A stretch of DNA of 64,000 bases, from the IMG/VR virus record IMGVR_UViG_2675903278_000002. One strand, written 5' to 3'. The position numbers and the translations under genes were made by a program. Each line of letters starts with the position of its first letter. Positions within the stretch are counted from its first letter, which is position 1. Shown piece by piece: positions 9,723 through 56,815 of the stretch. The DNA comes from a virus. Taxonomy: Duplodnaviria > Heunggongvirae > Uroviricota > Caudoviricetes. The notes under the pieces were generated by a model that saw nothing but the letters and a program-made list of their open reading frames with translations, was not told where the DNA came from and ran no database searches.

Positions 9723-9789
9723 GACCTGCTTCCGTATGTATTTAATAAGTTACTTATTATTTGTATATACAGAAGCAGGTCTTTTAAAG
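9723..9789. terminator. Large hairpin (10 bp stem GACCTGCTTC/GAAGCAGGTC, AT-rich 39 nt loop) followed by TTTTAAAG; putative terminator; same stem sequence recurs at 56751..56815
   Basis: Inverted repeat read directly in sequence downstream of the KAP NTPase stop. Confidence 0.4.
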
Positions 9790-9895
9790 ACACCCACCAG
9801 AACAAGTCCCTTCCGTTTCCACTTCCAAAAACTGCCACCAGTCGCTATCATCCGCTCATTGTGATAAGTAAGTAACTACCTACCAGGTGAGCCAC

Positions 9896-10636
9896 ATGAG
9901 CCAAATCTTTTTCGATACCATCGACAACGACCAGTACGACTTCATGACAGAGTGGAATACCGCTGTTATGGACAAGTGGGTTGCTGAAAACATTGGTTTG
10001 TCGCGCTGCAAAGACGAGGCTGAACTGTTTGAGACGAAGTGGTTTGATTACCGCGATATGCATCCTCTCATGGCCACCTGTCTGTTTACGGAGGCATACA
10101 AACGTCAGTACTCAAATATCATGCTGACGCACGGTCGTGAACACTTTGAAACAGCTCCGTTCACCACCGGGTTAAAACGCTTGCCTTATCAGGAGTTGTC
10201 GACTGCTAATAAAACGTCGCTATGGAAAGCACGCCAGTTTGCGGATCGCTATTGCTGCTCATACGACTACTTTATCTCCACTGTTCTTTCCGCAGCTGCA
10301 CGACGTCTGTGGGACAAGCTGCCTCGCCCACAGCATTTGTGGCAGCCAGAACTGATTGAGATATTTGAAGAGAAATTAGCCAGACGCGCAACAACCCGTC
10401 TGGATGACTCTCTGGTTAGCTTTAAGCATATGGGAGACATGCAGTTCAACCCGATTCAGGAAAGCTATTTTGAGTGGATTCTGGAGCGTTTGCGCACCAT
10501 CCCTCGCAGCAAGCGCATACGCGCAATTTTCTCCGCTATCTGGCTAATGGAAATCGTTCCAGAGCGCCTTATTTCCGACCACTTTCCAGAAGAACTGGAA
10601 GAAGCACGGCGGTTTATTGATCCCCTATCTAATTAA
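9896..10636 (+). CDS. Hypothetical protein
   Basis: ORF 9887..10636; AGGTGA RBS-like sequence 5 nt before ATG 9896. Confidence 0.5.
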   Translation: MSQIFFDTIDNDQYDFMTEWNTAVMDKWVAENIGLSRCKDEAELFETKWFDYRDMHPLMATCLFTEAYKRQYSNIMLTHGREHFETAPFTTGLKRLPYQELSTANKTSLWKARQFADRYCCSYDYFISTVLSAAARRLWDKLPRPQHLWQPELIEIFEEKLARRATTRLDDSLVSFKHMGDMQFNPIQESYFEWILERLRTIPRSKRIRAIFSAIWLMEIVPERLISDHFPEELEEARRFIDPLSN

Positions 10637-10679
10637 CTAATACTAGAAAACAATTTGTTTAAAAAACAAAGGAAAGCAC

Positions 10680-12020
10680 ATGACCGAACTTTGCCATACA
10701 GGACGCGGGCTGTCCGAAGAGTTTGATGAAGATTTCCAGAACAGACTGACGGCATATTTTTGTCGTGATCACGAGTTTCTTACTCGTGCGGGAGATCTGG
10801 TTGTGCCTAGCCAATTTGCCAATGCGGCCAATGCCATATTGGTTAATATGGTTTCGGGCTATTACCGTATGTACAAGAGCGCGCCCTCTTCATCTGCAAT
10901 TCTGGATATGCTTAAGCGTGCGAAACGCGATAAGACTATCCGTGAGGAACTATTCGCCGATGTTGTTGCTGCGTTTAAGCGCATCCTTGCAGAAAAATTG
11001 TCCGATACCTCGTACATGGTTGACCAGGTATCAACCTTCGCAAAAAGCGTAGCGTTTGATGATGCTCTGATTAAGGCTGCTGAACTGAAAGAGAAGGGCG
11101 ACTTTCAGGGGGCGATGGCAATCATGGCCAAGGTTCAGCAGATTGGATCGAACGAAGCGACCGGAATCTATGACTACTACACCTCCGCAAGTGAGCGATT
11201 GAAAGCGCGTGAATATGAGGCTTCAGAGGAGTATGTACCAAACAGTATTACAACTGGACTCCCTCTTCTCGATAGGTTGCTGTACCAAAAAGGCTGGGCA
11301 AAGCGCGAAATGGTGCTCTTCATGGGGTTCGCTAAATCCGGTAAATCGACCGCAATGGGTGAGTTTTCCATAAACGCAACGCTTGCTGGCTACAATGTTC
11401 TGTATCTCTCGCTGGAGGTTCACACCAACATTTTGTCCGACCGTTTTGATGCAAGATTGTCGGAGACGGAAATGTCCAAGTTGGTGGAACGGCGCGATGA
11501 AGTTCATCGTAAGTTGGCAGAGTTGGGAGCCTCTAAGGGGATTGGTAGTTTGTGGGTTGTTGAGCGTCCGTCAGGAAGTATGTCACCGGCAGATCTGGAC
11601 CGTATGCTTAACAGCATGAAAGCCAACGGCATGGTGCCTGATATGGTTGTTGTCGACTACGCAGATTTGATGCGTGCCAGTTATGACCTTCGTGATGATC
11701 GCGCCAACATTCGTAGTATCTACACCGATTTACGTGCTCTTTATGACAAACATAACGTTGCTGGAATCACGGCATCGCAGACAAACCGTGAAGGTGGCGC
11801 GTCAGAAGTTGCCACAATGATGCACGCCGCCGATAACATCGAAAAAGTACGTATTGCTGACCTGGTAATAACGATCAACAAAACCGAAGAAGAAGAAGCG
11901 AAAGGAGAGGCTCGTCTCTACTTTGCTGGTTCACGTAACCAGCAGGGTGGGATCAGCATTCGCGTTAAACAAAACCTCGAACAAATGCGTTTCATTGAGC
12001 GAATCTTAGACGTTACCTAA
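10680..12020 (+). CDS. DnaB-like replicative DNA helicase
   Basis: Walker A GFAKSGKST in a RecA-like C-terminal domain; 446 aa; adjacent to primase. Confidence 0.8.
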   Translation: MTELCHTGRGLSEEFDEDFQNRLTAYFCRDHEFLTRAGDLVVPSQFANAANAILVNMVSGYYRMYKSAPSSSAILDMLKRAKRDKTIREELFADVVAAFKRILAEKLSDTSYMVDQVSTFAKSVAFDDALIKAAELKEKGDFQGAMAIMAKVQQIGSNEATGIYDYYTSASERLKAREYEASEEYVPNSITTGLPLLDRLLYQKGWAKREMVLFMGFAKSGKSTAMGEFSINATLAGYNVLYLSLEVHTNILSDRFDARLSETEMSKLVERRDEVHRKLAELGASKGIGSLWVVERPSGSMSPADLDRMLNSMKANGMVPDMVVVDYADLMRASYDLRDDRANIRSIYTDLRALYDKHNVAGITASQTNREGGASEVATMMHAADNIEKVRIADLVITINKTEEEEAKGEARLYFAGSRNQQGGISIRVKQNLEQMRFIERILDVT

Positions 12021-12101
12021 AAAATAAGCGTGGAGAACACCTCCACGCTTGATTCATTTGTGAAACAACTTTTCTTTTGCCAAACCACAAAAGAAAAACA
12101 C

Positions 12102-13280
12102 ATGAGCCTTTATGTTATATCAACATTTAGGTTGGTCACAATATTGCCTGTTAAAAGTGGAATTATCGTGAGCGAACTGAAAGAGCTAATTACCGAATTA
12201 GATTTTGAACAATGGTTGGACACTGAAGGTATCGTTTATCGACGTGGAGGCGTGAGTGCTCGCGGTCGTGAAGTGAATATCAAGGAGTGTCCGGTATGCG
12301 GCAGCTCCAACTGGAAGGTATATTTCAATCTGACCAGTGGCGTAGGCAAATGCTTCGCTGGTGATCATCCCGAAGAGATTCAGTTCAATAAGCTGGTCTT
12401 CCTCAAGCACTACAGCGGCAAATCACGACGACAGTTCGAGGAATATGTGCAGAACGCTCTTCTTTCCCAGGGGTGGGCACCAAAGAAAGAAGAGATAGTG
12501 CTTGCAAGCACAGTCGAGTTAGAGGGACCACTTGCACTCCCTCGTCATTACGAACTTCCTATAGATGGTCGTCTTCCAGACTATCTGGTTGAACGAAACA
12601 TATCGCCTGAAATGGCAAAGTATTTTGACCTACGATACTGCGTCGAAGGCAAGCACGCTTATGTAGATCCGTATACAGATCAGGTTAAAGGACAGATATT
12701 CGATATGCGAATACTGATACCGGTTTACGATCTGGATGGGGTAATGAAGACATTTCAGGGGCGAGACATTACCGGTACAGCTGAACGTCGCTACCTCTTT
12801 CCTATGCAGCTTCCAGCTTCAGGTAAGTTTCTCTACAACGGCCATAATGCGGTCGGCAAACAGACTGTAGTTGTCTGTGAGGGGGCGTTCGATGTTATGG
12901 GGGTTAAACGAGCTATTTTTGATGAAGAAACATTACGTGATTACGTGGAACCGATAGGAACGTTCGGGATGCATCTATCTGGTAACACCACTCAGGATGC
13001 AGAAGATCAGTTAGGCGCGTTCCTGACGCTCAAGGCGCGTGGGTTACGTAATGTGATCATGATGTGGGATAGTGAAAAGCAAGCTATACGTAATACGATG
13101 GCCGCAGCCAGGCGACTGACCAGTATTGGTCTTAATGTCAAAGTGGCGTGTTTGGGCGAGGAAGGACTCGACCCGGGCGATGCAACGCCAGAGCAAATCA
13201 TCAAAGCCTATTATCGGGCAAAACCGTATACCAAGCAGTTGGAGTTACAAAGCAAGGTTTTGGGCATTAAGGCTCTATGA
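12102..13280 (+). CDS. DNA primase (zinc-binding domain plus TOPRIM)
   Basis: CPVCGSSNWKVYFNLTSGVGKCFAG zinc ribbon; TOPRIM-like VVVCEGAFDVMGV; ATG 12102 is preceded by the recurrent AAAAACACATG context; the longer GTG 12030 start lies inside a hairpin. Confidence 0.75.
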   Translation: MSLYVISTFRLVTILPVKSGIIVSELKELITELDFEQWLDTEGIVYRRGGVSARGREVNIKECPVCGSSNWKVYFNLTSGVGKCFAGDHPEEIQFNKLVFLKHYSGKSRRQFEEYVQNALLSQGWAPKKEEIVLASTVELEGPLALPRHYELPIDGRLPDYLVERNISPEMAKYFDLRYCVEGKHAYVDPYTDQVKGQIFDMRILIPVYDLDGVMKTFQGRDITGTAERRYLFPMQLPASGKFLYNGHNAVGKQTVVVCEGAFDVMGVKRAIFDEETLRDYVEPIGTFGMHLSGNTTQDAEDQLGAFLTLKARGLRNVIMMWDSEKQAIRNTMAAARRLTSIGLNVKVACLGEEGLDPGDATPEQIIKAYYRAKPYTKQLELQSKVLGIKAL

Positions 13281-13358
13281 TAACAATCACCTTTAAAATA
13301 AGTAGATGATTACTTATCTTTCTGTGAGAATACTTTCATCTGTTAGCTAGGAGTTGGT

Positions 13359-14135
13359 ATGAAAGACGAAATTCAGAAATTAGCCTGCGACATCATTGAT
13401 AAAACTGGTTTAGAAATCAGCGAGAGCAATCGGCTAGACATCATTGAAAAAGCCGTAAAAACAGCAATGGATCATATCGCCACTCGTTTGGTCGAGATCC
13501 CGCTACCAGGGCTACCTTATCTGAAAGTTGAGTTACACGTATGGGGTGAACCTTCTTGTTCACGGCGTTCTGCATTAGTTGTTTTTATTAGCAAAGAAAA
13601 CCCGCTCAGTCTTAAAGTGCAGGTTGGTGCATGGATGGATGGAAAAGTGATCTACACAAATACCGTTTTTTGTCTTTCAAACGACGAAACTATTGAAGCG
13701 GCCATTCAAGAAGCAGTTCTAGCAATGCGCAGCAGCGGTTTGATGAAGAATAACTACGAAGAGTACTTGCGTTCGATAAGTGGTGAAAAGACATTATCTC
13801 TGAAAGCAGATTTCGTTACCCCGAAAAATCTGTTGGAAGTCTTGCTTAATAAAGGGGCTAATGATGCCGTAAATGTAATCAGAGAGAGTGAGTATGCGTC
13901 TCTTTGCGACATGTGCAAAAGCCAGTTGGATCTGGTGCATATCGTTATTGATGCTGGGAAGGCATGTGATGGCGTAATGGCGGAATTTGCTTGGAAGGTG
14001 GTCAGGATTGCTAACGAATTACCGATGATAGAGCAAGAGGCCAAATCATACGCCACCAATCATGTCACAGAGCTTCTTGTCCCCTATCGCTTAGAAAGCA
14101 ATCAGCGCAAGATGGTTAGCTGGGGAAGTTGGTAA
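13359..14135 (+). CDS. Hypothetical protein
   Basis: 258 aa ORF with GGAG RBS upstream. Confidence 0.5.
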   Translation: MKDEIQKLACDIIDKTGLEISESNRLDIIEKAVKTAMDHIATRLVEIPLPGLPYLKVELHVWGEPSCSRRSALVVFISKENPLSLKVQVGAWMDGKVIYTNTVFCLSNDETIEAAIQEAVLAMRSSGLMKNNYEEYLRSISGEKTLSLKADFVTPKNLLEVLLNKGANDAVNVIRESEYASLCDMCKSQLDLVHIVIDAGKACDGVMAEFAWKVVRIANELPMIEQEAKSYATNHVTELLVPYRLESNQRKMVSWGSW

Positions 14136-14190
14136 TCTCTCCGCGCGTCGTTTTTTACGCAAATAACGATAGGTAAGTACAAGATTATTT

Positions 14191-14673
14191 ATGGCGGTAG
14201 TTGTGAAAGCTGATTTGTCAAAAATCCCTTCTATTTCAGGAAATAACGGTTATTCACTTCGTTGTGAGGAAGTAAAGATAAACGGTGAGTCGGCATATTG
14301 CAGCTATTCCGTTTGCCAGCACACCATTCTTGCCTTCAAAGAAAACCGTCTTCCTCGAACTTCTTTCCAGTCGTGCGCAACCGCTATTAAAGCAGGCAAA
14401 TGCAAGGCGTTAAAAATGATGGTTGAAGAGATTCGTAAAGGAGAATCTCTGTATTTCGAAGATATGACCGCGCTCATTAAGGAGGTTGAAGAACGGAATA
14501 AACAAGCCAGAACTATAAAACGAAAACGTGACAGTGTAACGATTAATAGCATGGTTAAGAAGAGCACCACATCACAAACAGCGATCACTGACGTGTATGC
14601 GGCGTTGCTTGAAGAAACAACAAAAGAAACACATGAGCAAATCGATCAACATATGGAGGCAAAACAACAATGA
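14191..14673 (+). CDS. Hypothetical protein
   Basis: 160 aa ORF; stop overlaps the ligase start. Confidence 0.5.
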   Translation: MAVVVKADLSKIPSISGNNGYSLRCEEVKINGESAYCSYSVCQHTILAFKENRLPRTSFQSCATAIKAGKCKALKMMVEEIRKGESLYFEDMTALIKEVEERNKQARTIKRKRDSVTINSMVKKSTTSQTAITDVYAALLEETTKETHEQIDQHMEAKQQ

Positions 14674-15992
14674 AAAAGTTGATCGCACTTAAGCATAAGC
14701 TGGACGAAATGAAAGCTATGGGAACCAATGCAAAAAAAGAGGCATTGGCCAACATGGATGACTTCGAGCAAAGCATGGTTTCATTGATGCTCAACCCTTT
14801 CATCCGTTTTGGGGTAAAGAAATACAAAGTGGCAGAGCCGCTTAGTGAGTCCGTCCCAAGTGACGAAAAAGCCATTGATATACTGAATAAGCTGGCCTCT
14901 CGCGAGCTGACGGGGAACGCAGCAATAGCTGCTGTTGAGTCTATCGTGGCGTCAATGTGCGCCGATGGGCAGGACGTGTTCCGTCGTTTCCTCTTAAAAG
15001 ATCCGAAAGCTGGCGTTGGGATTAGCCTATGCAACAAGGTTTTTGAAAATCCCATTCCGAAATTTGAGGTGCAGCTGGCGTCACCGTATAAAGAAAAAGG
15101 CGACAAATACCCCTTCAAGCCAAATCCTAAAGCCAAATGGCCGATGATTGGCAGCCTTAAGCTCGATGGTTTGCGAGTAATTTGTGAGGTTATTGTTGAC
15201 GAGGAAGAGGTGAACTTCCTTTCTCGTACTGGTAATCCAATCACGTCTCTCGATCACCTAAAGCCAGCCATGCTCGAATTAGGCAAACTTTCAGGCCACA
15301 AACACATCTTCTTCGATGGTGAAGGAACAGCCGGTTCATTTAACCAGTCCGTATCTGCATTGCGCAAAAAGAACGTGCAGGCAATTGGCGCTATTTATCA
15401 TGTTTTCGACTTCTTCCTACCGGAATGGCGGGCACAGGCTAAATCCAAAGAGTATGCAAAGACAGGTATGAAGCTGAAAGAGCGCCTGGCTATTCTCGTG
15501 GCGTTGTTCAAAAACGATCGCAGTGAAGACTACGCGCAAGACATTCACCTACATCCGTTCTACATCATCCATAGCCACGAAGACTTCATCGAACGCTTCA
15601 TGAAACGCCTGGACGATAACGAAGAAGGGGAGATGGGCAAAGATCCGAACTCTGTTTACGAGTTTAAACGTACCCGCAGCTGGTGGAAGTTAAAAGACGA
15701 AGATTCAGAAGATGGTGAAATTATCGACTTTGAGCCGGGCGACCCGGACTCTGGTTTTGCCAACACACTTGGAAAAATTGTTATTCGTCTTGAAAACGGC
15801 GTCATCGTTCGTGCGAGCGGCATTAAGCATAAATATCTGGACGAGATCTGGAACAACAAAGAGAAGTACCGTGGTCGTATTGTCGAGGTTCATTGTCACG
15901 AGAAAACACCGGACGGCAGCTTACGCCACCCACGACTGAAATGGCCGCGTTGCTTACGCGATACAGAAGATCGAATCGGAGATAAAGAATGA
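14670..15992 (+). CDS. ATP-dependent DNA ligase
   Basis: Adenylation motif KxDG in GSLKLDGLRV; 440 aa. Confidence 0.8.
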   Translation: MKKLIALKHKLDEMKAMGTNAKKEALANMDDFEQSMVSLMLNPFIRFGVKKYKVAEPLSESVPSDEKAIDILNKLASRELTGNAAIAAVESIVASMCADGQDVFRRFLLKDPKAGVGISLCNKVFENPIPKFEVQLASPYKEKGDKYPFKPNPKAKWPMIGSLKLDGLRVICEVIVDEEEVNFLSRTGNPITSLDHLKPAMLELGKLSGHKHIFFDGEGTAGSFNQSVSALRKKNVQAIGAIYHVFDFFLPEWRAQAKSKEYAKTGMKLKERLAILVALFKNDRSEDYAQDIHLHPFYIIHSHEDFIERFMKRLDDNEEGEMGKDPNSVYEFKRTRSWWKLKDEDSEDGEIIDFEPGDPDSGFANTLGKIVIRLENGVIVRASGIKHKYLDEIWNNKEKYRGRIVEVHCHEKTPDGSLRHPRLKWPRCLRDTEDRIGDKE

Positions 15993-16168
15993 TGCTCGGC
16001 TGGATGATTGCATTTTTAGCGGTTGGTTTTTTAATCGGTATTGTGGTGATGTCCAGTTGCATCAATGACTACATTAAAAGCGGTGTTATAGAACGACGCG
16101 GTCGTATTTATCGCATTGTAGAAATAACCCGCACAGTGAAGGAGATTAAGGATGATCGTATTAAGTAA
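15989..16168 (+). CDS. Small membrane protein (59 aa), translationally coupled; not in supplied ORF track (below 60 aa)
   Basis: ATGA overlap with ligase stop; hydrophobic N-terminus MMLGWMIAFLAVGFLIGIVVM then RRGRIYRIVEITRTVKEIK. Confidence 0.35.
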   Translation: MMLGWMIAFLAVGFLIGIVVMSSCINDYIKSGVIERRGRIYRIVEITRTVKEIKDDRIK

Positions 16169-16367
16169 GCGGGAGAAGGAAACGCTTCATGAAATCAGTA
16201 AGTGGCCGGAGTTCCCTGAGTACTGGAAGCCTAAAACGCGAGCTAAGTTAGAGCGTTTAGGGTTGGTTGCAAACGTTTCTGAAACGTGGTGCTCGGCCAA
16301 CTACCAGTTAACTGATAAAGGGAAAGTATTGCTACAGCAATTAGTAGAATCAGGAGTGTTAAAATGA
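16152..16367 (+). CDS. Hypothetical protein
   Basis: 71 aa ORF; overlaps neighbours at both ends. Confidence 0.4.
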   Translation: MIVLSKREKETLHEISKWPEFPEYWKPKTRAKLERLGLVANVSETWCSANYQLTDKGKVLLQQLVESGVLK

Positions 16368-17579: not shown

Positions 17580-17654
17580 GATGGTGTAGCTCAGCGGTAG
17601 AGCAGTTGGCTGTTAACCAACTGGTCGGTGGTTCGAATCCACCCACCATCGCCA
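17580..17654 (+). tRNA. tRNA-Asn (anticodon GTT)
   Basis: Manual fold: 7 bp acceptor stem GATGGTG/CACCATC, D-arm TAGCTCAGCGGTAGAGC, anticodon loop CTGTTAA, T-loop GGTGGTTCGAATCCACC, 3' GCCA. Confidence 0.75.
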
Positions 17655-17656: not shown

Positions 17657-17732
17657 GCCGGTTTAGCTCAGTTGGTAGAGCGCCTGCCTTGTAAGCAGGA
17701 TGTCAGCGGTTCGATCCCGTTAACCGGCACCA
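17657..17732 (+). tRNA. tRNA-Thr (anticodon TGT)
   Basis: Manual fold: acceptor GCCGGTT/AACCGGC, D-arm TAGCTCAGTTGGTAGAGC, anticodon stem CCTGC/GCAGG with loop CTTGTAA, T-loop GGTTCGATCC, 3' ACCA. Confidence 0.75.
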
Positions 17733-18052: not shown

Positions 18053-18139
18053 GGAGAGTAGGGAGCATGGTGCTCAAGCGGTCTTGAAATCCGTCCCATT
18101 GTGCAAACGATGATGGTTCGATTCCATTACTCTCCGCCA
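18053..18139 (+). tRNA. Class II tRNA with long variable arm, most likely tRNA-Ser (anticodon TGA); anticodon stem imperfect
   Basis: Acceptor GGAGAGT/ACTCTCC, T-loop GGTTCGATTCC, 3' GCCA, long variable region; anticodon loop CTTGAAA only with a mismatched closing pair. Confidence 0.55.
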
Positions 18140-30232: not shown

Positions 30233-30503
30233 AGAATTATGGCGCTTGTTGAGGAAGTCACTCCTCTTACGCACTTTGTTTTGCCATGCCGGCAGTTAGC
30301 TTCTGCCTTTGACTATTCATGCGGCAACCCCGCATTTCGCCACAATGGGCAATTCACTTTTATGGAATAAACTGGCCGTTGTGTCGATTTAATTAGCATG
30401 GCCTTACCATGCTAATTTATTCAACTTGTACAATCCTGCAAATCTATCCACTCAGGCTTACACCGTCTTCGTTATTGTAGAAATGAGGATCATCAGCGTT
30501 GAA

Positions 30504-30719
30504 TCAGCTTAGAGCAACGACATTTGCTGCTGCTGGGCCTTTAGCCCCATTCTCGATAGAGAATTCGACCTGCTGGCCTTCTTCCAAAGTGCGGAAATTA
30601 TTACTCTGAATTGCCGAAAAATGTACAAAAACATCTTTACTGCCATCAGCAGGAGAAATAAAGCCAAAGCCTTTATCAGAGTTAAACCATTTTACTAAAC
30701 CAGTCATTTTATTAGACAT
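30504..30719 (-). CDS. cspA: Cold-shock protein (CspA family)
   Basis: [21 protein letters not shown]... RNP1-like motif; 71 aa from the internal ATG at 30719. Confidence 0.85.
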
Positions 30720-31048
30720 AGATATTACCTTCTTAATTTTGTGAGCCACATAGTGCGGCGAGAATTTGATCTGTATAGATTGGGACTTACTTAGGCACTT
30801 AAGGAGGAGACTCACGAAGAAGGGAAATCAGAAGATAACACTGAACTGAGACTGCTTTACTAAAACTGCTTACATAAGGTCTGTCTTGCAAACCAACGAT
30901 GCTATTAACGCATACCCCTTCTTTTCATGCAACCTTTATTTTTCAAAGATAACTAATTTTTGTCACCATTGGTTTAGTAAACGTTAACGAACCAGACGAT
31001 GCCAGACACCTTTACAGAGAACAGATGCCCGCCAATTGGCGGGCATCA

Positions 31049-39302: not shown

Positions 39303-40358
39303 CTATTTGCGAGTCTTTGCCTTGCGCAACTCTTCGAGAAGCGCCAGTTCTTCTTTACTCAACATGACCATTTTGCCTTCTTTTTCGTCAGGCACAACGT
39401 CGATAATGTCATCTTGATTCTCATCTGGGAGGCTATATTCCGTCTCATCATTATCGATTTTTGTTGATATTTGTGCCTGGCGTAACTTTGGCCGCCTATA
39501 GTGGATGACGAAGTAGACCGAGTTTCCGCGCTTAACTTCCGTGTAATCGAGATATCCTATCTCTCGCAGCTGTTCCATAGCCTTTCTTACCGTCGCATTC
39601 TGAGTAATAGTGCGACTTGTCAGATTAAGTCTGGCGCGTAAACGGGCTAGTGATATTGGTGCCGGATCAGGCGGCAAACTTTCAATAAAAGTATAAAGCG
39701 CCTGAGCGGATTCTTTTCTTGAGAGTTCGTTTATAGCCCGGAGTTGCAGAAGAACCTTTTTGTCGAACTGGTAGAGTTCGAAAATCTTGGGATCTGCTTT
39801 CAGTTCGACCGTATCGTGCTTGACACTATATTTTGCCGTTTGCACAAGATGCGTTACGTAAAACTCATCAGAGCCTTTGCTACGGAACGAGATGGTATTT
39901 GTGGCAATACGGCTTAGCGAACTGTCCAGGCGTTTGCGTAACTTCGCTGATGACCTGGCGGTCGGAATGCCACACAGCCTTACAAACTCAACGAACGGCA
40001 ACGTGACAGTATCGCCAACGACCTTGTGTTTGGCAAACGCGTGGATTATTCCCACCCACGTTTTAAAGTCGTTATCCATATCAAGCCGAAGGCCAGAGAT
40101 CCTTATGTCTTCGTACCCTTCGGCTTTTGCCAGAGACAGCTGTTTGAGTTCAGCAGAGGCATCCATAGAGACCATTTGCCCCTTTCTTCCTCTGGATGTC
40201 GATTTCAGCGTCGGAACGAAGAGGCCCAGACGCATCAAAGCAACAGGCTGAACAGTGTTATTAGTGTTAGGAACCAACGTAACAACTTCGCCTGTCTTTT
40301 TATCTGTTTCTGAAAATGCTTCAACGATCGCTATGTTTTTATTGCCGTTTTCGCTCAT
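39303..40358 (-). CDS. repA: Iteron-binding plasmid replication initiator (RepA-like)
   Basis: 351 aa ORF flanked on both sides by iteron arrays, with DnaA boxes and an AT-rich stretch upstream. Confidence 0.75.
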
Positions 40359-40384: not shown

Positions 40385-41000
40385 CTTTGGTGGCCTTTGC
40401 TGATTACAGTGGATAGTAGCACTCATCACAGCGGTTATCCTACCGTCTATAGTGGTTTTTCTCCTCTCTATAGTGGTTGCTTTGCTCCCTATAGTGGATT
40501 ATTCGCTCTCTATAGTGGATATCGATCATGTCTGAAGGCAGATGGCACAACGGTTTGAGGTGGGCGGGGATCTTATTGGGTCTTTATGGGTCTCTTTGGT
40601 TCTCTTTGTGATCTGAATTACTGGATCGGGCCTGTGGATAAAAATCAGAGGATTTCAAGAACAGGTAACTCTACTCTTCTGTGGATATTTAAGGACATAA
40701 GAATCATGACTAAGAGTAGAGTTTAAAATATATCTATGTATATCAGTATGTTAATGAAGAATTAAGTCATTAAGTTATCCATAAAAGACAATGTGCTCTA
40801 CTCTCTACAGTGGATATATACAGCTCTCCAGAGTGGTTGTTTTACTCTTCATAGCGGTTATTCAGCTCTCTACAGAGGTTTCTTTGCTCTCCATAGTGGA
40901 TGGCAACACCCTTTCAGACCAGTAACCGCAACGGCTAGAGGCGATCGGGGATCTCTTTGGATCTTCTATTTGATCTTACTTGGGATCTCTTATTTGGATC
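40385..41000. promoter_or_regulatory. Putative plasmid replication origin: two clusters of approx 21-22 bp iterons (40385..40525 and 40795..40920), DnaA box TGTGGATAA at 40633..40641, AT-rich segment 40690..40790 and GGATCTCTTT-type repeats
   Basis: Tandem CTCTATAGTGGAT(T/A) repeats at regular spacing; DnaA-box matches; position immediately upstream of repA. Confidence 0.7.
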
Positions 41001-48933: not shown

Positions 48934-48938
48934 CATAT

Positions 48939-50259: not shown

Positions 50260-51129
50260 ATGAACTTTACCAAACTGACTGACCACCTGAAACTTGCCAC
50301 CGATCGACTCATTGGATTTAAGCCAGAACCATATGAGTTGCATGAAGGCCATGGTGTAGCCACTGAAAGTATTTACAAGATGGTCGATCAGTTTCATGAA
50401 CTCTTCCAGCATCCGAGACGCGTTATGCCGACACCAGAGCTGCTTCGTCTCCGTGCAAGCCTGATTCATGAAGAAGCTGTAGTGGAAGGTATTCCAGCCG
50501 CAATGAATGGGGATATTGAGCAACTGCTGGATGCAATGGCCGACTTTTTATACGTTGGTGTTGGTACGATGGTCGCCATCAAAGGTGGTATTTCTACCGG
50601 CATGACCTATTACACGCAGGAACAGAGCATTGATCGCTTTATGCAGACAATTTTTGTGCCCGGTAACACTGTTTTCGATGATATGGCAATGCCATTTCAG
50701 GAAGCTCGTGAGGCGTCATGTATGCTCGAAGAGCTGGCAGATAAACTTGAGAACAAGACTGTTAAGGATTCTGAGCTGATTCAGGAACTGCGCCGTGTCA
50801 TGAACAAAATCTATGTGGCGTGCATGATGACCTATCGACTGGCTGATTTCCTCGGTATCAATGTAGTCGAGCTGGTTGGCGAAATTCATCGGTCTAACAT
50901 GACAAAATTATGGCCTGCTGATGTTGAGGAACGTCGCCAGGCTGTGGCCAACTGCAAATACGACTCTTCAGATCTGGGATTCCGCCATGCTGATGGCACC
51001 GATAAGATGATCGGTTTTCGAATTTCCGATGGAAAGATTCTGAAGTCTCCAACCTATAGTGATGTCGATTTATCCTCCTTTGTTGAGCAAGCTAAAGCCT
51101 CAGCAATGTACGGAATGATCAAAAAATAA
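50260..51129 (+). CDS. Hypothetical protein, possibly MazG-like nucleotide pyrophosphohydrolase
   Basis: Helical EE/D-rich segments (LIHEEAVVEG, LEELADKLE) reminiscent of all-alpha NTP pyrophosphatases; weak. Confidence 0.35.
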   Translation: MNFTKLTDHLKLATDRLIGFKPEPYELHEGHGVATESIYKMVDQFHELFQHPRRVMPTPELLRLRASLIHEEAVVEGIPAAMNGDIEQLLDAMADFLYVGVGTMVAIKGGISTGMTYYTQEQSIDRFMQTIFVPGNTVFDDMAMPFQEAREASCMLEELADKLENKTVKDSELIQELRRVMNKIYVACMMTYRLADFLGINVVELVGEIHRSNMTKLWPADVEERRQAVANCKYDSSDLGFRHADGTDKMIGFRISDGKILKSPTYSDVDLSSFVEQAKASAMYGMIKK

Positions 51130-51198
51130 TTGTAGGTAGTTATCTATCTGTGTATATTGCGTTGGCGCGTTAAATTTCTGAAACAACTATTCGTTTTT

Positions 51199-51224
51199 GG
51201 TGGCCTATGGCCACCATTTTTTTA
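51199..51224 (+). terminator. Rho-independent terminator
   Basis: GGTGGCC-TAT-GGCCACC followed by ATTTTTTTA. Confidence 0.7.
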
Positions 51225-51300
51225 TCTGTCTGGTCTTGTTCTCTCAATAAATGTAAACTCACGCAATGAATAAGTGGTTACTTATCTTTGTGAGGTTTTT

Positions 51301-52404
51301 GTGTCACTCCTTTTGAATCGTGAGCATACGAACGGTCAGGTAACAAACGCATCGTATGCAAAAGTTATTGAGACGGTGCTTAAAAGCGGCGTGCAGGCTG
51401 ATGATCGCACAGGCACTGGTACTTTAAGCACCTGCTACGTTCCCTCTTACTACATGCTTACTGGTGGGACTGTGCCGCTTATTTCTGGAAAGGCGGTAAA
51501 TCTTAAGCCACTGCTTGTCGAACTTGAGTGGTATCTGAAAGGCACGGGCAACATCCAATTTCTCAAGGATAACGGCGTTAAGATTTGGGATGCATGGGCC
51601 GATGAGAATGGCGATTTGGGGCCGGTTTACGGTAAGCAGTGGCGTCGATGGGAAGATACCCGCATCGTGAGCCATAGTGAATATCTGAGCAAGATCGCTA
51701 CTTTCCGTGAACGCGGGTACAAAGTCGAGGGATACCTGGGTATCAGTGAAGATCGCGTAGTGCTGTCCCGTGAAATCGATCAGCTACAGCGTATTGTCGA
51801 TACACTGCGCACGAACCCTACCGATCGTCGCATCATGCTTAACGCATGGAACGTAGGCGAGCTTGAGGATATGAAACTGCCACCTTGCCACTTTGTCTTC
51901 TCTTTGTGGAGTCGTGAGCTGGATTTTGAAACCCGTTTAACGATGGCAACTGACATTGGTCTTCAACACAGTCGCCTCGGTTATGAGTCTATCTACACCA
52001 AGATGCTATACGATCTGGAGATGGACGGCAGTGTTACTGAAACTGAACTGGATGAACTTGGAATCCCCAAACGCATCCTCAACTCCTGCCTCGTACAGCG
52101 TAGCGTAGACACTTTTGTTGGTATGCCATTCAATATTGCTGGCTATGGCATTCTCACTCATTTTCTCGCGAAGATTACGGGTCACATGGCCGGTGCATTT
52201 GTGCATTTTGGCTTTGACGTGCATTTATACAATAACCACATGGAAAGTGTGTGTGAGCTAATGAAACGACAGGCTCCAGAGCATTCAGATCCGGTCGTTA
52301 TTTTCCCTCATGAATGGTCTGAGCTGGATGATTTCAAATGGGACGATATTCTGATTCTTGGCTATGACCCTCTACCGTGGATCAAGGTTCCAGTGGCGGT
52401 GTGA
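51301..52404 (+). CDS. thyA: Thymidylate synthase family enzyme (ThyA-like, with insertions; dCMP/dUMP hydroxymethylase not excluded)
   Basis: Motifs DRTGTGT, GPVYGKQWR, catalytic PPCH, QRSVDTFVGMPFNIAGY; start set at GTG 51301. Confidence 0.75.
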   Translation: MSLLLNREHTNGQVTNASYAKVIETVLKSGVQADDRTGTGTLSTCYVPSYYMLTGGTVPLISGKAVNLKPLLVELEWYLKGTGNIQFLKDNGVKIWDAWADENGDLGPVYGKQWRRWEDTRIVSHSEYLSKIATFRERGYKVEGYLGISEDRVVLSREIDQLQRIVDTLRTNPTDRRIMLNAWNVGELEDMKLPPCHFVFSLWSRELDFETRLTMATDIGLQHSRLGYESIYTKMLYDLEMDGSVTETELDELGIPKRILNSCLVQRSVDTFVGMPFNIAGYGILTHFLAKITGHMAGAFVHFGFDVHLYNNHMESVCELMKRQAPEHSDPVVIFPHEWSELDDFKWDDILILGYDPLPWIKVPVAV

Positions 52405-52405
52405 T

Positions 52406-52819
52406 ATGGCAAGAGGTATGTATGTCTTATGCGAAATTGAAGGTGTGCTGGCAAATGCCAGCCATCGTAAATCAGTATCTGACGCGGATGCAGGCCAGCT
52501 CATTGCCGGTGATGAACTCATTTTCCCCACCAGCCGTATGTTGCGTGGTTTTGCTCGCTCAGGGGCTGAAGTGGTGCTTATCAGTAGCCGCTCTGAAACT
52601 CTTGAAGCGCCAACTAAACGATGGCTGAAAGATTTTGGCGTTGATTATGACTGGCTTCATCTCGTACCGAATGGCACCAGTTATGAGAAGCATATTAAGC
52701 GCACATTAGCGGAGCATAAAGGCGATCTGCTTATCGCTGCGCTGGTGCACGATCCTCGACTCCGTGCCGCTTTAGCCGACTCTCACCATCGACCGGTCAT
52801 CTATGAGGTGAGCAAATGA
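52406..52819 (+). CDS. Hypothetical protein
   Basis: ATG 52406 just after the thyA stop; stop overlaps the DHFR start. Confidence 0.4.
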   Translation: MARGMYVLCEIEGVLANASHRKSVSDADAGQLIAGDELIFPTSRMLRGFARSGAEVVLISSRSETLEAPTKRWLKDFGVDYDWLHLVPNGTSYEKHIKRTLAEHKGDLLIAALVHDPRLRAALADSHHRPVIYEVSK

Positions 52820-53292
52820 AGATGATCGCTGCTGTTGGCCGTAACTATGAGATCGGCATAGCGAATGAACTCCCCTGGCGTTGTTCTACCGATCTGAAGC
52901 TATTTAAGAGACTCACCAAAAACGCCACTGTCGTTATGGGGCGTAAAACGATGGAAAGTCTCAAACGCCCTCTTCCAGAGCGTCATAACCTCGTTTTGAC
53001 GCGCTCTCATGGCTTTGTACCAAATGGATTCTACCCTGCTGGTGTGGATGATGTGTTGCGATTACCAGAGCCTGTGTGGGTGATTGGCGGGGAACAAATT
53101 TACTCGCTATTCATGCCGCATGTTGAAGAGATTTGGCTCTCCCACATCGGCGTTGATGTGCCAAACGCCGATGCATTCTTCCCGGCAAGCATGATGCGTA
53201 ATTTAGGCTTTGTGCCTGTTGAAACAGCTTATACCCAACGAGCCAGCGAGGAAGAGCCTGGCTTTTCGCAGATCGTATACAGAAGGTCGTAA
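52816..53292 (+). CDS. folA: Dihydrofolate reductase
   Basis: MKMIAAVGRNYEIGIANELPW, VVMGRKT, VWVIGGEQIY motifs; 158 aa. Confidence 0.85.
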   Translation: MKMIAAVGRNYEIGIANELPWRCSTDLKLFKRLTKNATVVMGRKTMESLKRPLPERHNLVLTRSHGFVPNGFYPAGVDDVLRLPEPVWVIGGEQIYSLFMPHVEEIWLSHIGVDVPNADAFFPASMMRNLGFVPVETAYTQRASEEEPGFSQIVYRRS

Positions 53293-53936
53293 TGGATTAC
53301 CGGATTGGGATCACTGGTGCTCAGGGCAGTGGGAAAACAACCCTGGCTAAATATATCGACAAACATTACGGAATCCCTTACGTGGATGCTGGTGTCGGAA
53401 GTTTGATGAGCCGCCTCGGTGTTCGAGTAGGTGATTCTATGCCTCTATATGAGCGGCTTCAGATTCAAATGGAAATAGCAAAGCATATAGAGCTACTTAC
53501 GCGTGGTGTTGAAGGCTTTGTTATCGATCGCACACCTGCTGATGTTATGGCCTACACGTTGGATTTGGTCGGCCATACAAATGAAGATCGGTGTATTGAG
53601 TTAGCCCTCGATATCGAAAAGTTTTGCCACAAAACTGCTATTTCAAACTTTAACGCCATTGCTGGCTTACGCCCGGGAGTCGCTCTCTCAGAGCGAGATT
53701 ACTTGCGATCACAACGAGCATCATTAGACCGTCTGTATGTCGCTCGTATTGATGCGTTGATGTGCGGGGAACTGACAAAAATTCACCTGCATCCGCAAAG
53801 GGGAGATCTGCAAACCTTCGTCGTTTCCAACCGATATCGCACGGTTGAAGCAAGAGCCAGATCAGTGATGAGAATGCTAGATAACGCTGTAGAAAAGATA
53901 GAAAACCGGTTCTGTGGCCGAGTGACCGTTCATTAG
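53292..53936 (+). CDS. P-loop nucleotide/nucleoside kinase (dNMP kinase-like)
   Basis: Walker A ITGAQGSGKTT at the N-terminus; 214 aa; within the nucleotide metabolism block. Confidence 0.5.
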   Translation: MDYRIGITGAQGSGKTTLAKYIDKHYGIPYVDAGVGSLMSRLGVRVGDSMPLYERLQIQMEIAKHIELLTRGVEGFVIDRTPADVMAYTLDLVGHTNEDRCIELALDIEKFCHKTAISNFNAIAGLRPGVALSERDYLRSQRASLDRLYVARIDALMCGELTKIHLHPQRGDLQTFVVSNRYRTVEARARSVMRMLDNAVEKIENRFCGRVTVH

Positions 53937-53997
53937 AAATTGTTCGCCTCTTCGACATTGCGACAATAAAACTCTCAAAATGGGTTAAGGATAAAAA

Positions 53998-54417
53998 ATG
54001 TTTAGTGAAATGTTGCTTGAAGATGAACTGGATCGGAAAACAACAGAGGCTTTGATTCGTGTAGCGGACGAACATTCCCGGTCGCTTATGAGCGATCGAG
54101 AGGCTCGTCTGGCTATTCGTGCCATATTCGAAACTGCGCAGGGGCTTGTTGGTACACAAGTGGGTGAAGCCATTAACATCGCCATGTCTCAGTTCAGTGA
54201 AGGCAGTAAAAAGCCTCTGTTTCCTATGCATTTGATGCTGGCTGGTGGCTCGGTGCTTTATATCTCTGTTTGTCTGGATAGCAACCAAATCAATATTCTC
54301 AACACTGTGTCAGGTAAGTGGAAAGATCCGATTGTCTGTGAAACCAGTGAAGAAACTTTGAAAAAAGCGGCTCAATTTGTACGTAGCGCACTACTTAAGG
54401 GCGCTAAGAAGTTGTAA
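53998..54417 (+). CDS. Hypothetical protein
   Basis: 139 aa ORF. Confidence 0.45.
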   Translation: MFSEMLLEDELDRKTTEALIRVADEHSRSLMSDREARLAIRAIFETAQGLVGTQVGEAINIAMSQFSEGSKKPLFPMHLMLAGGSVLYISVCLDSNQINILNTVSGKWKDPIVCETSEETLKKAAQFVRSALLKGAKKL

Positions 54418-54426
54418 GGAGTTCTG

Positions 54427-54984
54427 ATGACAACGATTGTTGCAGGCATCGATATCGAGTCTACGGGACTGGATTTCCTTGCTGGTCATAAAATTATTGA
54501 AATCGCAATTACCCGCTATGAACTGGAGACACAGAGACATATTGATAGTCTGGAGATGCGTTTTAACCCTCGCAGAAACATAGATCCGAAAGCTCAAGCC
54601 GTTCATGGCATTTCATTGGAACAGCTCGCAGCTGAACCTTTGTTGTCAAATCATGCCAGCGAAATTGGCGCTTATATGGGGGCATGTAGTGTGTGGGTTG
54701 CTCATAACGGCGAAGCATTTGATATACCATTTATTCGACACGAGTTTTCAGGGTATGGAGTAAGACTGCCAGAAGTTCCTGTTATAGATACTATGTTATC
54801 GGGATTGTGGGCCACAGAAGACGGTAAACGTCCCCGCCTTGAAGAGTTGGCCTTCTCTCTTGGCTTTATATACGATCATGCCAAAGCACATAGTGCCTTA
54901 TATGACACAAACTTAATGATGCAATGCTTCTTTAAGGCACGTAATAAGTACGGATTTTTTAAATTACCCTCTGAAATTGTGTAA
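54427..54984 (+). CDS. DnaQ-like 3'-5' exonuclease (DEDDh family)
   Basis: Exo motifs GIDIESTGL, WVAHNGEAFDIPF, HSALYDT. Confidence 0.75.
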   Translation: MTTIVAGIDIESTGLDFLAGHKIIEIAITRYELETQRHIDSLEMRFNPRRNIDPKAQAVHGISLEQLAAEPLLSNHASEIGAYMGACSVWVAHNGEAFDIPFIRHEFSGYGVRLPEVPVIDTMLSGLWATEDGKRPRLEELAFSLGFIYDHAKAHSALYDTNLMMQCFFKARNKYGFFKLPSEIV

Positions 54985-54988
54985 AACA

Positions 54989-55027
54989 AAAGCCTACTTT
55001 AAAAAGTTTAAAGTAGGCTTTCTTTTA
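54989..55027 (+). terminator. Rho-independent terminator
   Basis: AAGCCTACTTTAAA-AAG-TTTAAAGTAGGCTT followed by TCTTTT. Confidence 0.7.
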
Positions 55028-55142
55028 AAGAACAGTCGCCTTTCAATCATTTCCTGCCTGTATTTAATACTTTTCCGCCTGATAGGTTTAGTCAAAATGT
55101 AGCCATCGAAACGCAAATGTAACCAAACAGAAGGAGACTTAC

Positions 55143-55952
55143 ATGAGTTCGGTTGAAAATGTAATGACAAATGATGATCTGGACGAGCTGACAGCCATGT
55201 TGCAATCACTTGATGAACCAGTAAAAAAAGCTGCACAGGTTGAAAATACTGATGATATTGACGATCTGCTGCTCGGCCTAGATGCTGGCGTAGCCATGAG
55301 TTCTGATGATGTTGCCGAAGAACTGTTCAATGAAGAAAAAGCAGGTGATTTCAGCTCTGCTTTAAATGAGTTGGAGTTAGCGCATGAGCCTATAAACGTA
55401 ATTAACGCTGAAAGTGTTGAAGCTGCCGAAAACGAGCCAGAACAATTGGGATTTATTGAGGTTGAAGAGTGTGTTGAGGTTAATGATGAATTAAAAGTTC
55501 AACAGTCAAATGATAGCAATACAAATAAAAAAGCTCGTGCTGCAAGAGGTCCTCGTTTTACTTTAAGTGATAAAGATGATTCGTTTTTCAATAAAGCGGG
55601 CTTAGAAAAAGATATTTTCTTAGACGCTTACGATAACGCGCCTGTCAAAGCAAAGGATAAGATATTAAACCTTCTTAATTGGTTTAGCGGAGGTCCAGAT
55701 ATTAGTGTTTACACGGTAATTTCCATGAGACACCTTCTCACAGAAAAGAAGGCTACAAGTAATAGTATTAAGATTGCTTTAATGAGCAATCCAGAAAAAC
55801 CGTATCCGCTTAACACTGCGTCAACTCAGGCTGGGCAAATGATGGCTGTATTTCCAGCGACAGGAATTGCCGTTAGAGGCGGTGGAAATCTAACATTGAA
55901 CGAAGAATCACCGATCGTTAAGAAGTTTGTCGCGGAGTACACTATTGGATGA
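55143..55952 (+). CDS. Highly acidic hypothetical protein
   Basis: 269 aa, N-terminal half dominated by Asp/Glu. Confidence 0.45.
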   Translation: MSSVENVMTNDDLDELTAMLQSLDEPVKKAAQVENTDDIDDLLLGLDAGVAMSSDDVAEELFNEEKAGDFSSALNELELAHEPINVINAESVEAAENEPEQLGFIEVEECVEVNDELKVQQSNDSNTNKKARAARGPRFTLSDKDDSFFNKAGLEKDIFLDAYDNAPVKAKDKILNLLNWFSGGPDISVYTVISMRHLLTEKKATSNSIKIALMSNPEKPYPLNTASTQAGQMMAVFPATGIAVRGGGNLTLNEESPIVKKFVAEYTIG

Positions 55953-56135
55953 CGTTCCCCTACTGAAAATAAAGCCCATAGAGAGCTTTATAGTGCTGGG
56001 TAAGCCAATCACATACCCAGCACCACAAAAACGCGCCAGAGAGCTTCTCGTTTGCATTTCTGGCGCGTTTTATTTGATTGCCAGACATAAAATCAAATGC
56101 AAAAATAGGTATTTACTTACCTATCGAGAAAGAAG

Positions 56136-56729
56136 ATGATTGCAGCCGAAAAAATCAAACAGCGAAAGCGCGACAACTCTCTTCGTGACCTCTGGAGAAC
56201 ACCTGACTGGCTGTTTTCTGCCATTCAACGTTATCTTGGAGTGACATTTGATGTTGACGTTGCCTGCAACAAGGACAATGCAAAGCTGCCTAATTTCATA
56301 GGCGTTGAGCGTGATGCTTTGAAATCTGAATGGGGACAGCCAGGTACAATTGCCTTCCTCAATCCACCCTACTCCAAAATCTCCCCCTGGATTGATGCGG
56401 CTATACGTGAGCAGGCTCGCGGAGTTACAACAGTGATGCTAATTCCTCAATCCCTAGATACAAAGTGGTATGAGCGTGCAACAGAGTGTGCGAATGAGAC
56501 GATTATTCTGTCTGGTGGCCGCGTAGCGTTTGTCGAGCCTGACGTCAATCTGGGTCAGGTAGAAGTAAACATCAACCCAGGTGGCAGTATGCTCGTTGTT
56601 TTTCGAGGATTCTGTCAGGACGCTGGGCACTCTATAAGCAAGATCCCTTTGGACGTCATGAAAAGTCTGGGAGGGTATGATCCTGCGAATGTGATCAGGA
56701 AAAAAAGACCATCAAAGAAGGCTGCTTAG
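56136..56729 (+). CDS. Phage-type DNA N6-adenine methyltransferase (orphan, Dam-like)
   Basis: WRTPDWLF N-terminal motif and catalytic NPPYS; 197 aa. Confidence 0.7.
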   Translation: MIAAEKIKQRKRDNSLRDLWRTPDWLFSAIQRYLGVTFDVDVACNKDNAKLPNFIGVERDALKSEWGQPGTIAFLNPPYSKISPWIDAAIREQARGVTTVMLIPQSLDTKWYERATECANETIILSGGRVAFVEPDVNLGQVEVNINPGGSMLVVFRGFCQDAGHSISKIPLDVMKSLGGYDPANVIRKKRPSKKAA

Positions 56730-56750
56730 TTTGTTCTGGCGTCTGTAATT

Positions 56751-56815
56751 AGCCTGCTTCTGTATATATAAATAACTACATATTAATTATTAATATACGG
56801 AAGCAGGCTGTTTTG
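56751..56815. terminator. Long hairpin (approx 17 bp stem AGCCTGCTTCTGTATAT / ATATACGGAAGCAGGCT, AT-rich loop) followed by GTTTTG; second copy of the element at 9723..9789
   Basis: Read directly downstream of the methyltransferase stop. Confidence 0.45.

Follow-up and report, generated by a model that had tools for sequence, protein, structure and literature searches.

Within 64,000 nt of viral DNA (IMG/VR record IMGVR_UViG_2675903278_000002; hereafter the window, meaning the whole stretch analysed), the same long hairpin follows two genes, one encoding a KAP-family P-loop NTPase and the other an N6-adenine methyltransferase (dam). This arrangement raises the question of whether the hairpin came with the genes that it follows or belongs to the element that carries them, and of what it does there. 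An earlier note on this DNA had considered it either a dedicated family of terminators or the footprint of a mobile cassette or miniature inverted-repeat element that delivered both genes. The analysis reported here demonstrates that the hairpin is a backbone feature found at three fixed sites and that its first copy is the right border of a slot for defence genes, and it leads us to favour, on balance, a role as a composite transcription stop between modules.

Two copies of one hairpin

The window derives from an Escherichia coli phage-plasmid of the SSU5/pHCM2 type (SSU5/Cyrano-like), with a GC content of 45.6%. Among the records it most resembles Escherichia phage Cyrano (the pLF82 plasmid), CMS-2020a and PhiR41_1, at 96-99% identity, followed by SSU5 and Klebsiella relatives at about 77%. 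SSU5/pHCM2-like phage-plasmids are widespread among clinical Enterobacteriaceae, and their cis-regulatory architecture is almost wholly uncharted; in the literature searched, we found no mention of hairpins, palindromes or terminators of SSU5-like elements.

As the earlier note had it, the window contains two elements with a near-identical stem (Table 1), hairpin 1 beginning 9 nt past the stop codon of the KAP NTPase gene and hairpin 2 beginning 22 nt past that of dam. The two share the arms CCTGCTTCYGTAT/ATACRGAAGCAGG, and the 13-mer CCTGCTTCYGTAT matches the window four times, at exactly the four arms, against 0.10 matches expected and with none of 100 shuffles reaching four. Folded as RNA, hairpin 1 attains -28.3 kcal/mol (z = -7.4) and hairpin 2 -28.8 kcal/mol (z = -6.1); the minus-strand RNA of both folds about equally well, and the corresponding DNA folds have z-scores of about -8.5. 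The stem measures about 25 bp within a hairpin of 55-59 nt with an AT-rich centre, and the coding-strand consensus common to the three sites, CCTGCTTC[T/C]GTATATATAAATAaTAAGTnACTTATTAAATATATACGGAAGCAGG, is a near-complete 55-bp palindrome. Pairwise alignment, one of the checks proposed in the earlier note, confirmed the similarity but revealed that the two window copies are mutually inverted (48/62 positions identical when inverted versus 45/61 in direct orientation): the loop is swapped between them, as is the C/T asymmetry of stem position 9. The sequence of hairpin 2 is identical in Cyrano and also occurs at site 2 in 16 loci reached through Dam.

An Rfam gathering scan of the window yielded no match at the hairpins, only a cspA thermoregulator and tRNAs. 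A simple terminator scan did list the short GC terminators of the window; its loop limit is 8 nt, and hence the absence of the hairpins from its output is uninformative either way. An outer inverted pair, GTCTGGGAG...CTCCCAGAC, is present on either side of the hairpin in Salmonella and Klebsiella types, where it brings the fold to between -46 and -58 kcal/mol and is joined by further CCAGA copies about 21 bp apart; the extended folds of SSU5 sites 2 and 3 attain -45.6 and -57.5 kcal/mol (z about -8). Site 1 of the window shows little outer pairing.

Table 1. Positions of the hairpins, their surroundings and other features in the window.
Feature	Position (nt)	Strand	Remarks
Hairpin copy 1 (site 1)	9723-9781	+	Arms CCTGCTTCCGTATGTA / TATATACAGAAGCAGG; interior flipped relative to family consensus
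T-run after hairpin 1	9782-9785	+	TTTT; tail TCTTTT counted from last stem bases
C-rich, G-poor (rut-like) non-coding tract	9786-9859	+	After hairpin 1; strongly conserved
Hairpin copy 2 (site 2)	56751-56809	+	Arms CCTGCTTCTGTATATATA / TAATATACGGAAGCAGG; standard family orientation
Tail after hairpin 2	56810-56814	+	GTTTT (RNA tail CUGUUUU)
C-rich, G-poor tract	56815-56884	+	After hairpin 2; contains CTCCAGACC, CCCAGACG
parA	6929-7597	+	Open reading frame (ORF); Cyrano homologue annotated ParA
Small parB-like gene	7597-7956	+	ORF; Cyrano homologue annotated (mis-named) RelE/ParE
Cargo slot	7957-9722
GC hairpin between parB stop and KAP NTPase start	7960-7985		ATTGGGCG-tttgtta-CGCCCAAT
KAP-family P-loop NTPase, foreign cargo	8008-9714	+	PF07693, E = 7.7e-6; PADLOC PDC-S49, E = 1.5e-21
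Operator-like palindrome	9863-9885	+	GATAAGTAAGTAACTACCTACC; just before 9896-10636; highly conserved in site-1 alignment
First replication-module gene	9896-10636		Homologue CYRAN_31 in Cyrano
dam, N6-adenine methyltransferase	56136-56729	+	PF05869, E = 2.5e-38
(G)ATAAGTA-type palindrome copies	4284, 9865, 13299, 16815, 19282, 25189, 32132, 36121, 38070, 41870, 51271, 56106, 58321, 63291
AAACAAnTTGTTT copies	6881, 10648, 23030, 37265, 48996, 59218, 59947		Also upstream of terS in relatives, e.g. L014:6990-7010
Iteron arrays (CTATAGTGG core)	40426-40518, 40828-40899		21-bp period
repA-like ORF	39303-40358	-	Adjoined by the iteron arrays
cspA thermoregulator	30479-30897	-	Full-length Rfam match, 185.7 bits, E = 2.4e-49
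tRNA-Asn (GTT)	17580-17654
tRNA-Thr (TGT)	17657-17732
tRNA-Ser (TGA)	18053-18139
ORF of 1136 aa	27-3437		Probably tail-fibre-like
Direct repeat, 197 nt	489-685, 1257-1453		82% identity, 768 nt apart
Toxin-antitoxin pair	5432-6649	-	Divergent from parA

Three fixed positions in the phage-plasmid backbone

An exact-pattern scan of viral contigs returned at least 120 loci, all of them in SSU5-like contexts, and clustering of their flanks resolved three sites per genome. At site 1, that of hairpin 1, the downstream flank is conserved and the upstream flank falls into at least eight unrelated classes. Sites 2 and 3 are conserved on both flanks. Site 2 follows dam; site 3, which the window does not include, is placed between the last early gene and the genes for the small and large terminase subunits (terS and terL), 130 nt upstream of terS, and two proteins with a ParB_N domain are encoded upstream of it. 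Relatives were gathered through TerS, Dam and the product of 9896-10636, so that sampling was independent of the hairpin pattern. The hairpin was present at 220 of the 221 usable loci found through these neighbouring proteins, with the site-3 copy at all 74 usable loci found through TerS. Because it occurs in 220 of 221 relatives found independently of its pattern, the hairpin is a fixed backbone feature and not a dispersed repeat.

A degenerate-pattern scan of one genome per species, covering 185,579 species, gave ten matches. Nine were in SSU5-like contigs at the same three sites (Kluyvera, Buttiauxella, Yersinia pestis pMT1 and one metagenome-assembled genome), and the tenth was an unrelated GC-rich hairpin. 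Each locus holds a single hairpin match, and cargos of two genes lack an internal copy. With more than 200 homologous copies in relatives, the similarity of the two window elements cannot be dismissed as a short chance stem absent elsewhere, the outcome by which the earlier note would have had its claim judged.

The same three positions are retained from E. coli to Xenorhabdus and Moellerella, the site-3 copies of the deeper lineages having been reached through TerS homologues and the contigs encoding them. A two-arm pattern search for further copies in Xenorhabdus-type and L291-type genomes recovered nothing beyond the site-2 copies already known, and a 14-mer single-arm scan with the same aim gave at least 120 matches, attributable to chance, none of them palindromic among those listed. 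The plasmid collection yielded no relative of the Xenorhabdus-type and L291-type contigs.

Hairpin 1 marks the 3' end of the parA/parB operon (6929-7956), whose small parB-like product has no Pfam match and appears from its sequence to be of the ribbon-helix-helix (RHH) type. Between the parB stop codon and the hairpin lies a slot (in relatives, loci L294-L373) that holds one to two genes or is empty. Five loci have an empty slot, with hairpin 1 only 32-33 nt past the parB stop codon; in the others the two are 0.83-2.04 kb apart. The inserts belong to at least seven unrelated protein families, some of them encoded on the opposite strand. Four have PADLOC matches: a GIY-YIG protein (PD-T4-3), a protein matching PD-T7-5 (E = 4e-139), a DUF2971 protein (PDC-S31) and the KAP NTPase of the window (PDC-S49). 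The remaining three families have no Pfam or PADLOC match. The KAP NTPase gene has a GC content of 29.4%, versus 45.6% for the window and 47-50% for its neighbours, and Cyrano, CP053388 and PhiR41_1 are homologous to the window only from 9718-9720 onwards, the left foot of hairpin 1. These results demonstrate that the slot between parB and hairpin 1 is a defence hotspot in which the KAP NTPase is true cargo, and that hairpin 1 is the backbone's right border of this slot and did not arrive with the genes. The slot is a convenient place for mining new defence genes, with the hairpin as its precise landmark. The window carries in addition a small GC hairpin near the left end of the slot (Table 1), which may mark where the inserted cargo begins on its 5' side or act as an internal attenuator.

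The situation at site 2 is different. The identities that the earlier note gave to the two genes, KAP NTPase and Dam, were borne out by their Pfam matches, and its description of both as cargo-like fits the foreign, low-GC KAP NTPase gene but not dam. The latter has a backbone-like GC content of 48%, and Dam homologues with 61-100% identity occur in the same context in 88 viral contigs, making dam a conserved core gene. Delivery of cargo by the hairpin is refuted because the hairpin is retained beside an empty slot, and the mobile-cassette footprint that was to have brought both genes is likewise contradicted by the three fixed sites and by the core status of dam.

A probable composite transcription stop

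All hairpin copies lie 9-60 nt past a stop codon, on the coding strand and with a single polarity relative to transcription. At site 1 the stem ends in a TCTTTT tail in about 72 of 79 loci, and site 2 carries CTGTTTT, CTTTTT or CTTTTC in about 62 of 68, that is, in about 90% of cases. Each window hairpin is followed by an untranslated tract rich in C and poor in G, of the roughly 70-80 nt characteristic of Rho utilization (rut) sites. Positions 9786-9855 contain 40% C and 11% G, and nowhere else in the 64-kb window does C exceed G so strongly (maximum at 9790, quantile 0.9999); the GC skew of the tract is -0.58, and its core, CCCTTCCGTTTCCACTTCCAAAAA, is nearly invariant across relatives. The tract after hairpin 2 (33% C, 13% G) lies at quantile 0.995 of the window, and its CCAGAC motifs are conserved in the site-2 alignment. 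Since this C-over-G composition is the signature of Rho-loading sites, both tracts are putative rut sites. CYCCCAGAC is not significantly enriched in the window (19 matches versus 13.4 expected), and the CCAGAC motif is probably best read as part of the C-rich tract and not as an iteron.

Expression data are available for Cyrano, whose flanking sequences match the window at 96-98% identity. In RNA-seq of the LF82 lysogen, ParA, the parB-like gene and the cargo gene CYRAN_30 reach 49.8, 89.1 and 54.6 fragments per kilobase per million (FPKM), and CYRAN_31 reaches 6.2 FPKM, at or below the background median of 9.8 (PMC9928086 S1 Table). Under other conditions, log2 values fall from 8.6-10.4 to 2.6-4.2 (PMC9928086 S1 Table). 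The drop falls across the 193-nt gap between CYRAN_30 and CYRAN_31 that contains hairpin 1, and no second hairpin was seen in this gap. Genes upstream of site 3 are near background, which makes expression uninformative there; the drop concerns site 1 alone.

By a modest balance of probability, we read the hairpins as a backbone cis-element that acts as a composite transcription stop, or insulator, between modules. The dedicated terminator family of the earlier note is thereby the best supported of its proposals, through the position of the copies past stop codons, their T-runs, the rut-like tracts and the drop in Cyrano expression. The three positions would set the par operon and its cargo apart from the replication and early genes, divide dam from the early block that follows it, and mark off the early region from terS-terL. 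At sites 1 and 2, the coding-strand RNA hairpin of about 25 bp and its U-tract would form an intrinsic terminator, and the C-rich, G-poor tract would load Rho on read-through RNA as a back-up. We infer that in the lysogenic state, with the par operon and cargo transcribed constitutively, hairpin 1 would shield the repressed replication and lytic genes, so that lysogens could express a gene placed between parB and the hairpin while the phage programme ran undisturbed; the preference of single-gene defence systems for the slot would thereby be accounted for. Gene conversion would keep the three copies alike. If this reading is true, hairpin 1 is part of how the element manages to be both plasmid and phage.

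Like known intrinsic terminators, the copies at sites 1 and 2 combine a stem-loop with a GC-rich base and a U-rich tail (UCUUUU, CUGUUUU), stand past stop codons and, for site 1, coincide with a drop in expression. Unlike them, they consist of a palindrome of about 25 bp whose sequence is reused at three sites across genera, one of these sites being without a T-run. The hairpin is thus ordinary in kind, being terminator-like, and unusual in its size, its reuse at three sites and its sequence conservation.

Pairing is maintained among the copies. Across 72 distinct variants, 97% of stem cells are paired, and both sides have changed in three stem pairs, as many as or fewer than were obtained in 5 of 500 shuffles; the variants at stem position 9 are C-G, U.G, U-A and C.A. 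On the coding strand, departures of the G.U type outnumber those of the A.C type (49 versus 15 unique variants). In deeper lineages the stem sequence differs and pairing is fully compensated, as in Xenorhabdus (GCCTTGCTCCCATA/TATGGGAGCAAGGC) and in the L291 type. One distant lineage has lost the left arm of the site-2 copy and carries a canonical GC hairpin with TTTTT there, which suggests a functional replacement.

Several observations weigh against a transcription stop. Site 3, though retained no less faithfully than the others, never carries a T-run in the close family, and the tract downstream of it is only weakly C-rich; intrinsic termination is thereby excluded as a function shared by the three copies. 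A T-run is missing, too, from several distant copies at site 2. The usual dimensions of a terminator (a stem of about 5-14 bp and a loop of 3-8 nt) do not fit a stem of about 25 bp with an AT-rich centre, and the ordinary terminators of the window are short GC hairpins. The RNA-seq drop is a gene-level observation from a relative, Cyrano, in which termination and processing or decay are inseparable. Within the stem, variation is absent from 7 of 13 pairs and the changes at position 6 (G.A, A.A, T.C) are not compensated, which points to conservation more of sequence than of structure; the G.U excess, moreover, counts variants and not independent events, and a C-to-T mutation bias could produce it. 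Finally, the flanking motif is lineage-specific yet common to the sites of a genome, CYCCCAGAC in E. coli, Salmonella and Klebsiella versus CACTGCGG in Xenorhabdus and Moellerella, and lineage-specific arms together with such a motif could also be expected from a cognate binding protein.

The likeness of copies within genomes extends to the arms. In Xenorhabdus, both site 2 and site 3 have TATGGGAGCAAGG, followed downstream by CACTGCGG, and E. coli and Salmonella have GGAAGCAGG arms with CCCAGAC downstream. E. coli-type genomes have one and the same sequence at sites 1 and 3, as genome 2600255169 does at sites 1 and 2, and genome 2880329822 has a private loop common to all three sites. In Xenorhabdus szentirmaii, the right arm of site 3 equals both arms of site 2; the left arm at Xenorhabdus site 3 is degraded. 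This pattern fits gene conversion or a cognate factor, and the concerted evolution of three copies 20-50 kb apart offers a small, clean case of gene conversion between short palindromes of a phage genome. Copy 1 of the window is the only clearly flipped copy (orientation score 27 versus 18). The flip is confined to the window lineage, with an identical hairpin in L048/L300 and L118/L309. In CP054387, whose KAP homologue is 85% identical, the hairpin has the standard orientation; the inversion of the interior thus took place in situ in the lineage that bears KAP, presumably through an exchange of one arm with the other.

Among the alternatives, the most probable, though we consider it unlikely, is that the palindrome is a DNA-level recognition site for a co-evolving phage-plasmid protein, serving as a centromere or in packaging, replication initiation or recombination, with termination secondary. 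The invariant pairs and uncompensated mismatches suit such a site, as do arms and a downstream motif that are lineage-specific and common to the sites of one genome; gene conversion, for its part, has direct evidence in the copies that agree within single genomes and explains shared sequence without any protein, and the unenriched CCAGAC is explicable as C-rich tract. The outer inverted pair and the CCAGA copies at about 21-bp spacing in Salmonella and Klebsiella types, and the folding of the DNA strands, are further points in its favour. At the empty slot the element lies 12 nt past the parB stop codon, a suggestive place because it is the classic position of a centromere. Type Ib RHH ParB proteins are expected to bind short tandem repeats, and none were seen in the parA promoter region. 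N15, also a phage-plasmid, offers a parallel, its type Ia SopB binding short inverted repeats at several genome positions; in both cases a few palindrome copies are scattered over the genome, one of them beside the partition genes, but the ParB-like protein here is small and seemingly RHH-type, and the T-runs and transcript data point to a role in RNA. The conservation of T-runs at sites 1 and 2 and the replacement of a distant site-2 palindrome by what looks like an ordinary terminator also count against a DNA site.

Directly upstream of terS stands site 3, and it is inside its palindrome (...GACTTATTA|AATATATACGG), 8-9 nt from the centre, that the SSU5 record (JQ965645; L123:2965-3000, L124:1-20) begins and ends, which would suit a DNA-level site such as cos. 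The match to Cyrano (OV696614) ends at the same point of the palindrome, its record start probably having been copied from SSU5; the Cyrano paper is a re-annotation and reports no determination of ends. The vB_KpnS_p4727 record starts at an ATG, and other records likewise start at arbitrary ATG codons. Three cos sites would fragment the genome, the 17-nt overhang implied by the SSU5 record end is self-complementary, and assemblers, we believe, often break at palindromes. Because of these three points, and because Cyrano probably follows SSU5, we do not count the record ends in favour of cos. An assembly break at the palindrome, carried into the Cyrano record, is a more likely origin of these ends than a real terminus, and a cos site at site 3 is unlikely.

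A related and rather doubtful possibility is that the triplicated palindrome and its flanking motifs are the DNA or RNA target of a co-evolving phage-plasmid factor, acting for example as a ParB centromere or as a switchable terminator/antiterminator by which transcription in the plasmid and lytic states would be coupled at the three module boundaries. Such a factor would explain why the arms are uniform within a genome and differ among E. coli/Salmonella, Klebsiella, Xenorhabdus and Moellerella.

We hold it similarly doubtful that the hairpin is an RNase III processing or stability element, cutting polycistronic transcripts into module mRNAs with or without termination. RNase III requires about two helical turns of double-stranded RNA. 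The length and near-perfect pairing of the hairpin suit the enzyme, the stem of about 25 bp exceeding the roughly 20 bp of double-stranded RNA that cleavage would need; in some lineages outer pairing extends the hairpin to about 45 bp. This reading would account for several homologous intergenic hairpins in one orientation and for a site 3 free of a U-tract, and the Cyrano drop would fit just as well if the RNA were cleaved and its downstream part then decayed. In T7, the RNase III sites are related long intergenic hairpins, arranged in the direction of transcription, with a characteristic internal bubble and without a T-run or C-rich tract. The present hairpins resemble them as sequence-related long intergenic hairpins with small internal loops and differ in having both the T-run and the C-rich tract, whose conservation processing would not need. 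Uncompensated mismatches are tolerated, moreover, and site 1 of the window has little outer pairing to offer the enzyme.

Improbable in our view is a largely functionless palindrome that maintains itself through gene conversion and cruciform-stimulated recombination, its terminator features being coincidental. The concerted evolution, the flipped interior of the window copy and the degraded or lost arms of distant lineages are what such a sequence would show, but against it stand the retention of the three positions over the range from E. coli to Xenorhabdus and Moellerella with compensated stems, the presence in 220 of 221 close relatives, and the conserved T-runs and C-rich tracts adjoining the hairpin.

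A miniature mobile element or attC-like cassette site that brought the KAP NTPase and dam deserves hardly any credence: hairpin 1 does sit exactly at the homology breakpoint beside a foreign low-GC gene, with an upstream neighbour that varies among at least seven families, but the empty-slot hairpins, the 220/221 presence, the three fixed sites and the core nature of dam all contradict it. As regards specific kinds of element, a MITE or a repeat of the repetitive extragenic palindromic (REP) type was rejected on the fixed sites, the presence in relatives and the 185,579-species scan, and no target-site duplication is visible in the hairpin sequences read. An integron attC site was rejected on the retention of the hairpin at empty slots and its single copy per locus even with two-gene cargo; the arms CCTGCTTC/GAAGCAGG contain no GTTRRRY core. 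Imperfect palindromes at gene 3' ends are common to REPs and bacterial interspersed mosaic elements, MITEs and attC sites, but dispersal, presence/absence polymorphism, target duplications, attC cores and an integrase context are all lacking here.

The composite transcription stop that we favour also invites comparison with the promoter-early stem-loop (PeSL) cassettes of T4-type phages, which are reportedly homologous intergenic stem-loops joined to an early promoter and bordering variable genes, on both sides and at many places, and whose short homologies are said to be usable for gene shuffling. Hairpin 1 likewise precedes an operator- or promoter-like motif (9863-9885) and borders a cargo slot. 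It differs in having three fixed copies, with exchange at one site and on the upstream side, and in being much longer and fully palindromic.

Other motifs and genes in the window

The operator-like palindrome downstream of hairpin 1 belongs to a family of the form (G)ATAAGTA/TAGGTA-N4-8-TACTTAT(C)/TACCTA, with about 14 copies in the window, almost always intergenic and often preceding a TGTGAGAAT-like extended -10. By analogy with the dispersed C1 operators of P1, this family looks like early promoters with overlapping repressor operators. Most hairpin loop centres (TAAGTnACTTA) use the same half-site.

A second palindrome, AAACAAnTTGTTT, occurs seven times in the window versus 0.45 expected. 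Its copies lie about 35-45 nt upstream of start codons, including that of parA and, in relatives, that of terS, and it could be a promoter element or an operator or centromere of the small ParB-like protein. In relatives (for example L014:7003-7035, L124:100-135), a conserved GC hairpin with a T-run (GAGCGCAAGGAYGCGCTC TGTGTGTTTT) stands directly before the terS ribosome-binding site, downstream of AAACAAGTTGTTT. This promoter-leader-terminator layout resembles pR'/tR' of lambda and hints at antitermination control of late genes.

Two iteron arrays adjoin the repA-like ORF and presumably constitute the plasmid replication origin. The match to the cspA thermoregulator indicates a cold-shock-protein gene with a regulatory 5' untranslated region, on the strand opposite to nearly all genes. 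The three tRNA genes lie in a long stretch without large ORFs. The 197-nt direct repeat falls inside the 1136-aa ORF, which probably encodes a tail-fibre-like protein with repeated domains. The toxin-antitoxin pair corresponds, by the Cyrano annotation, to a KacT-type acetyltransferase toxin and its antitoxin, and this locus has by far the highest lysogen expression in Cyrano, at 344-592 FPKM (PMC9928086 S1 Table).

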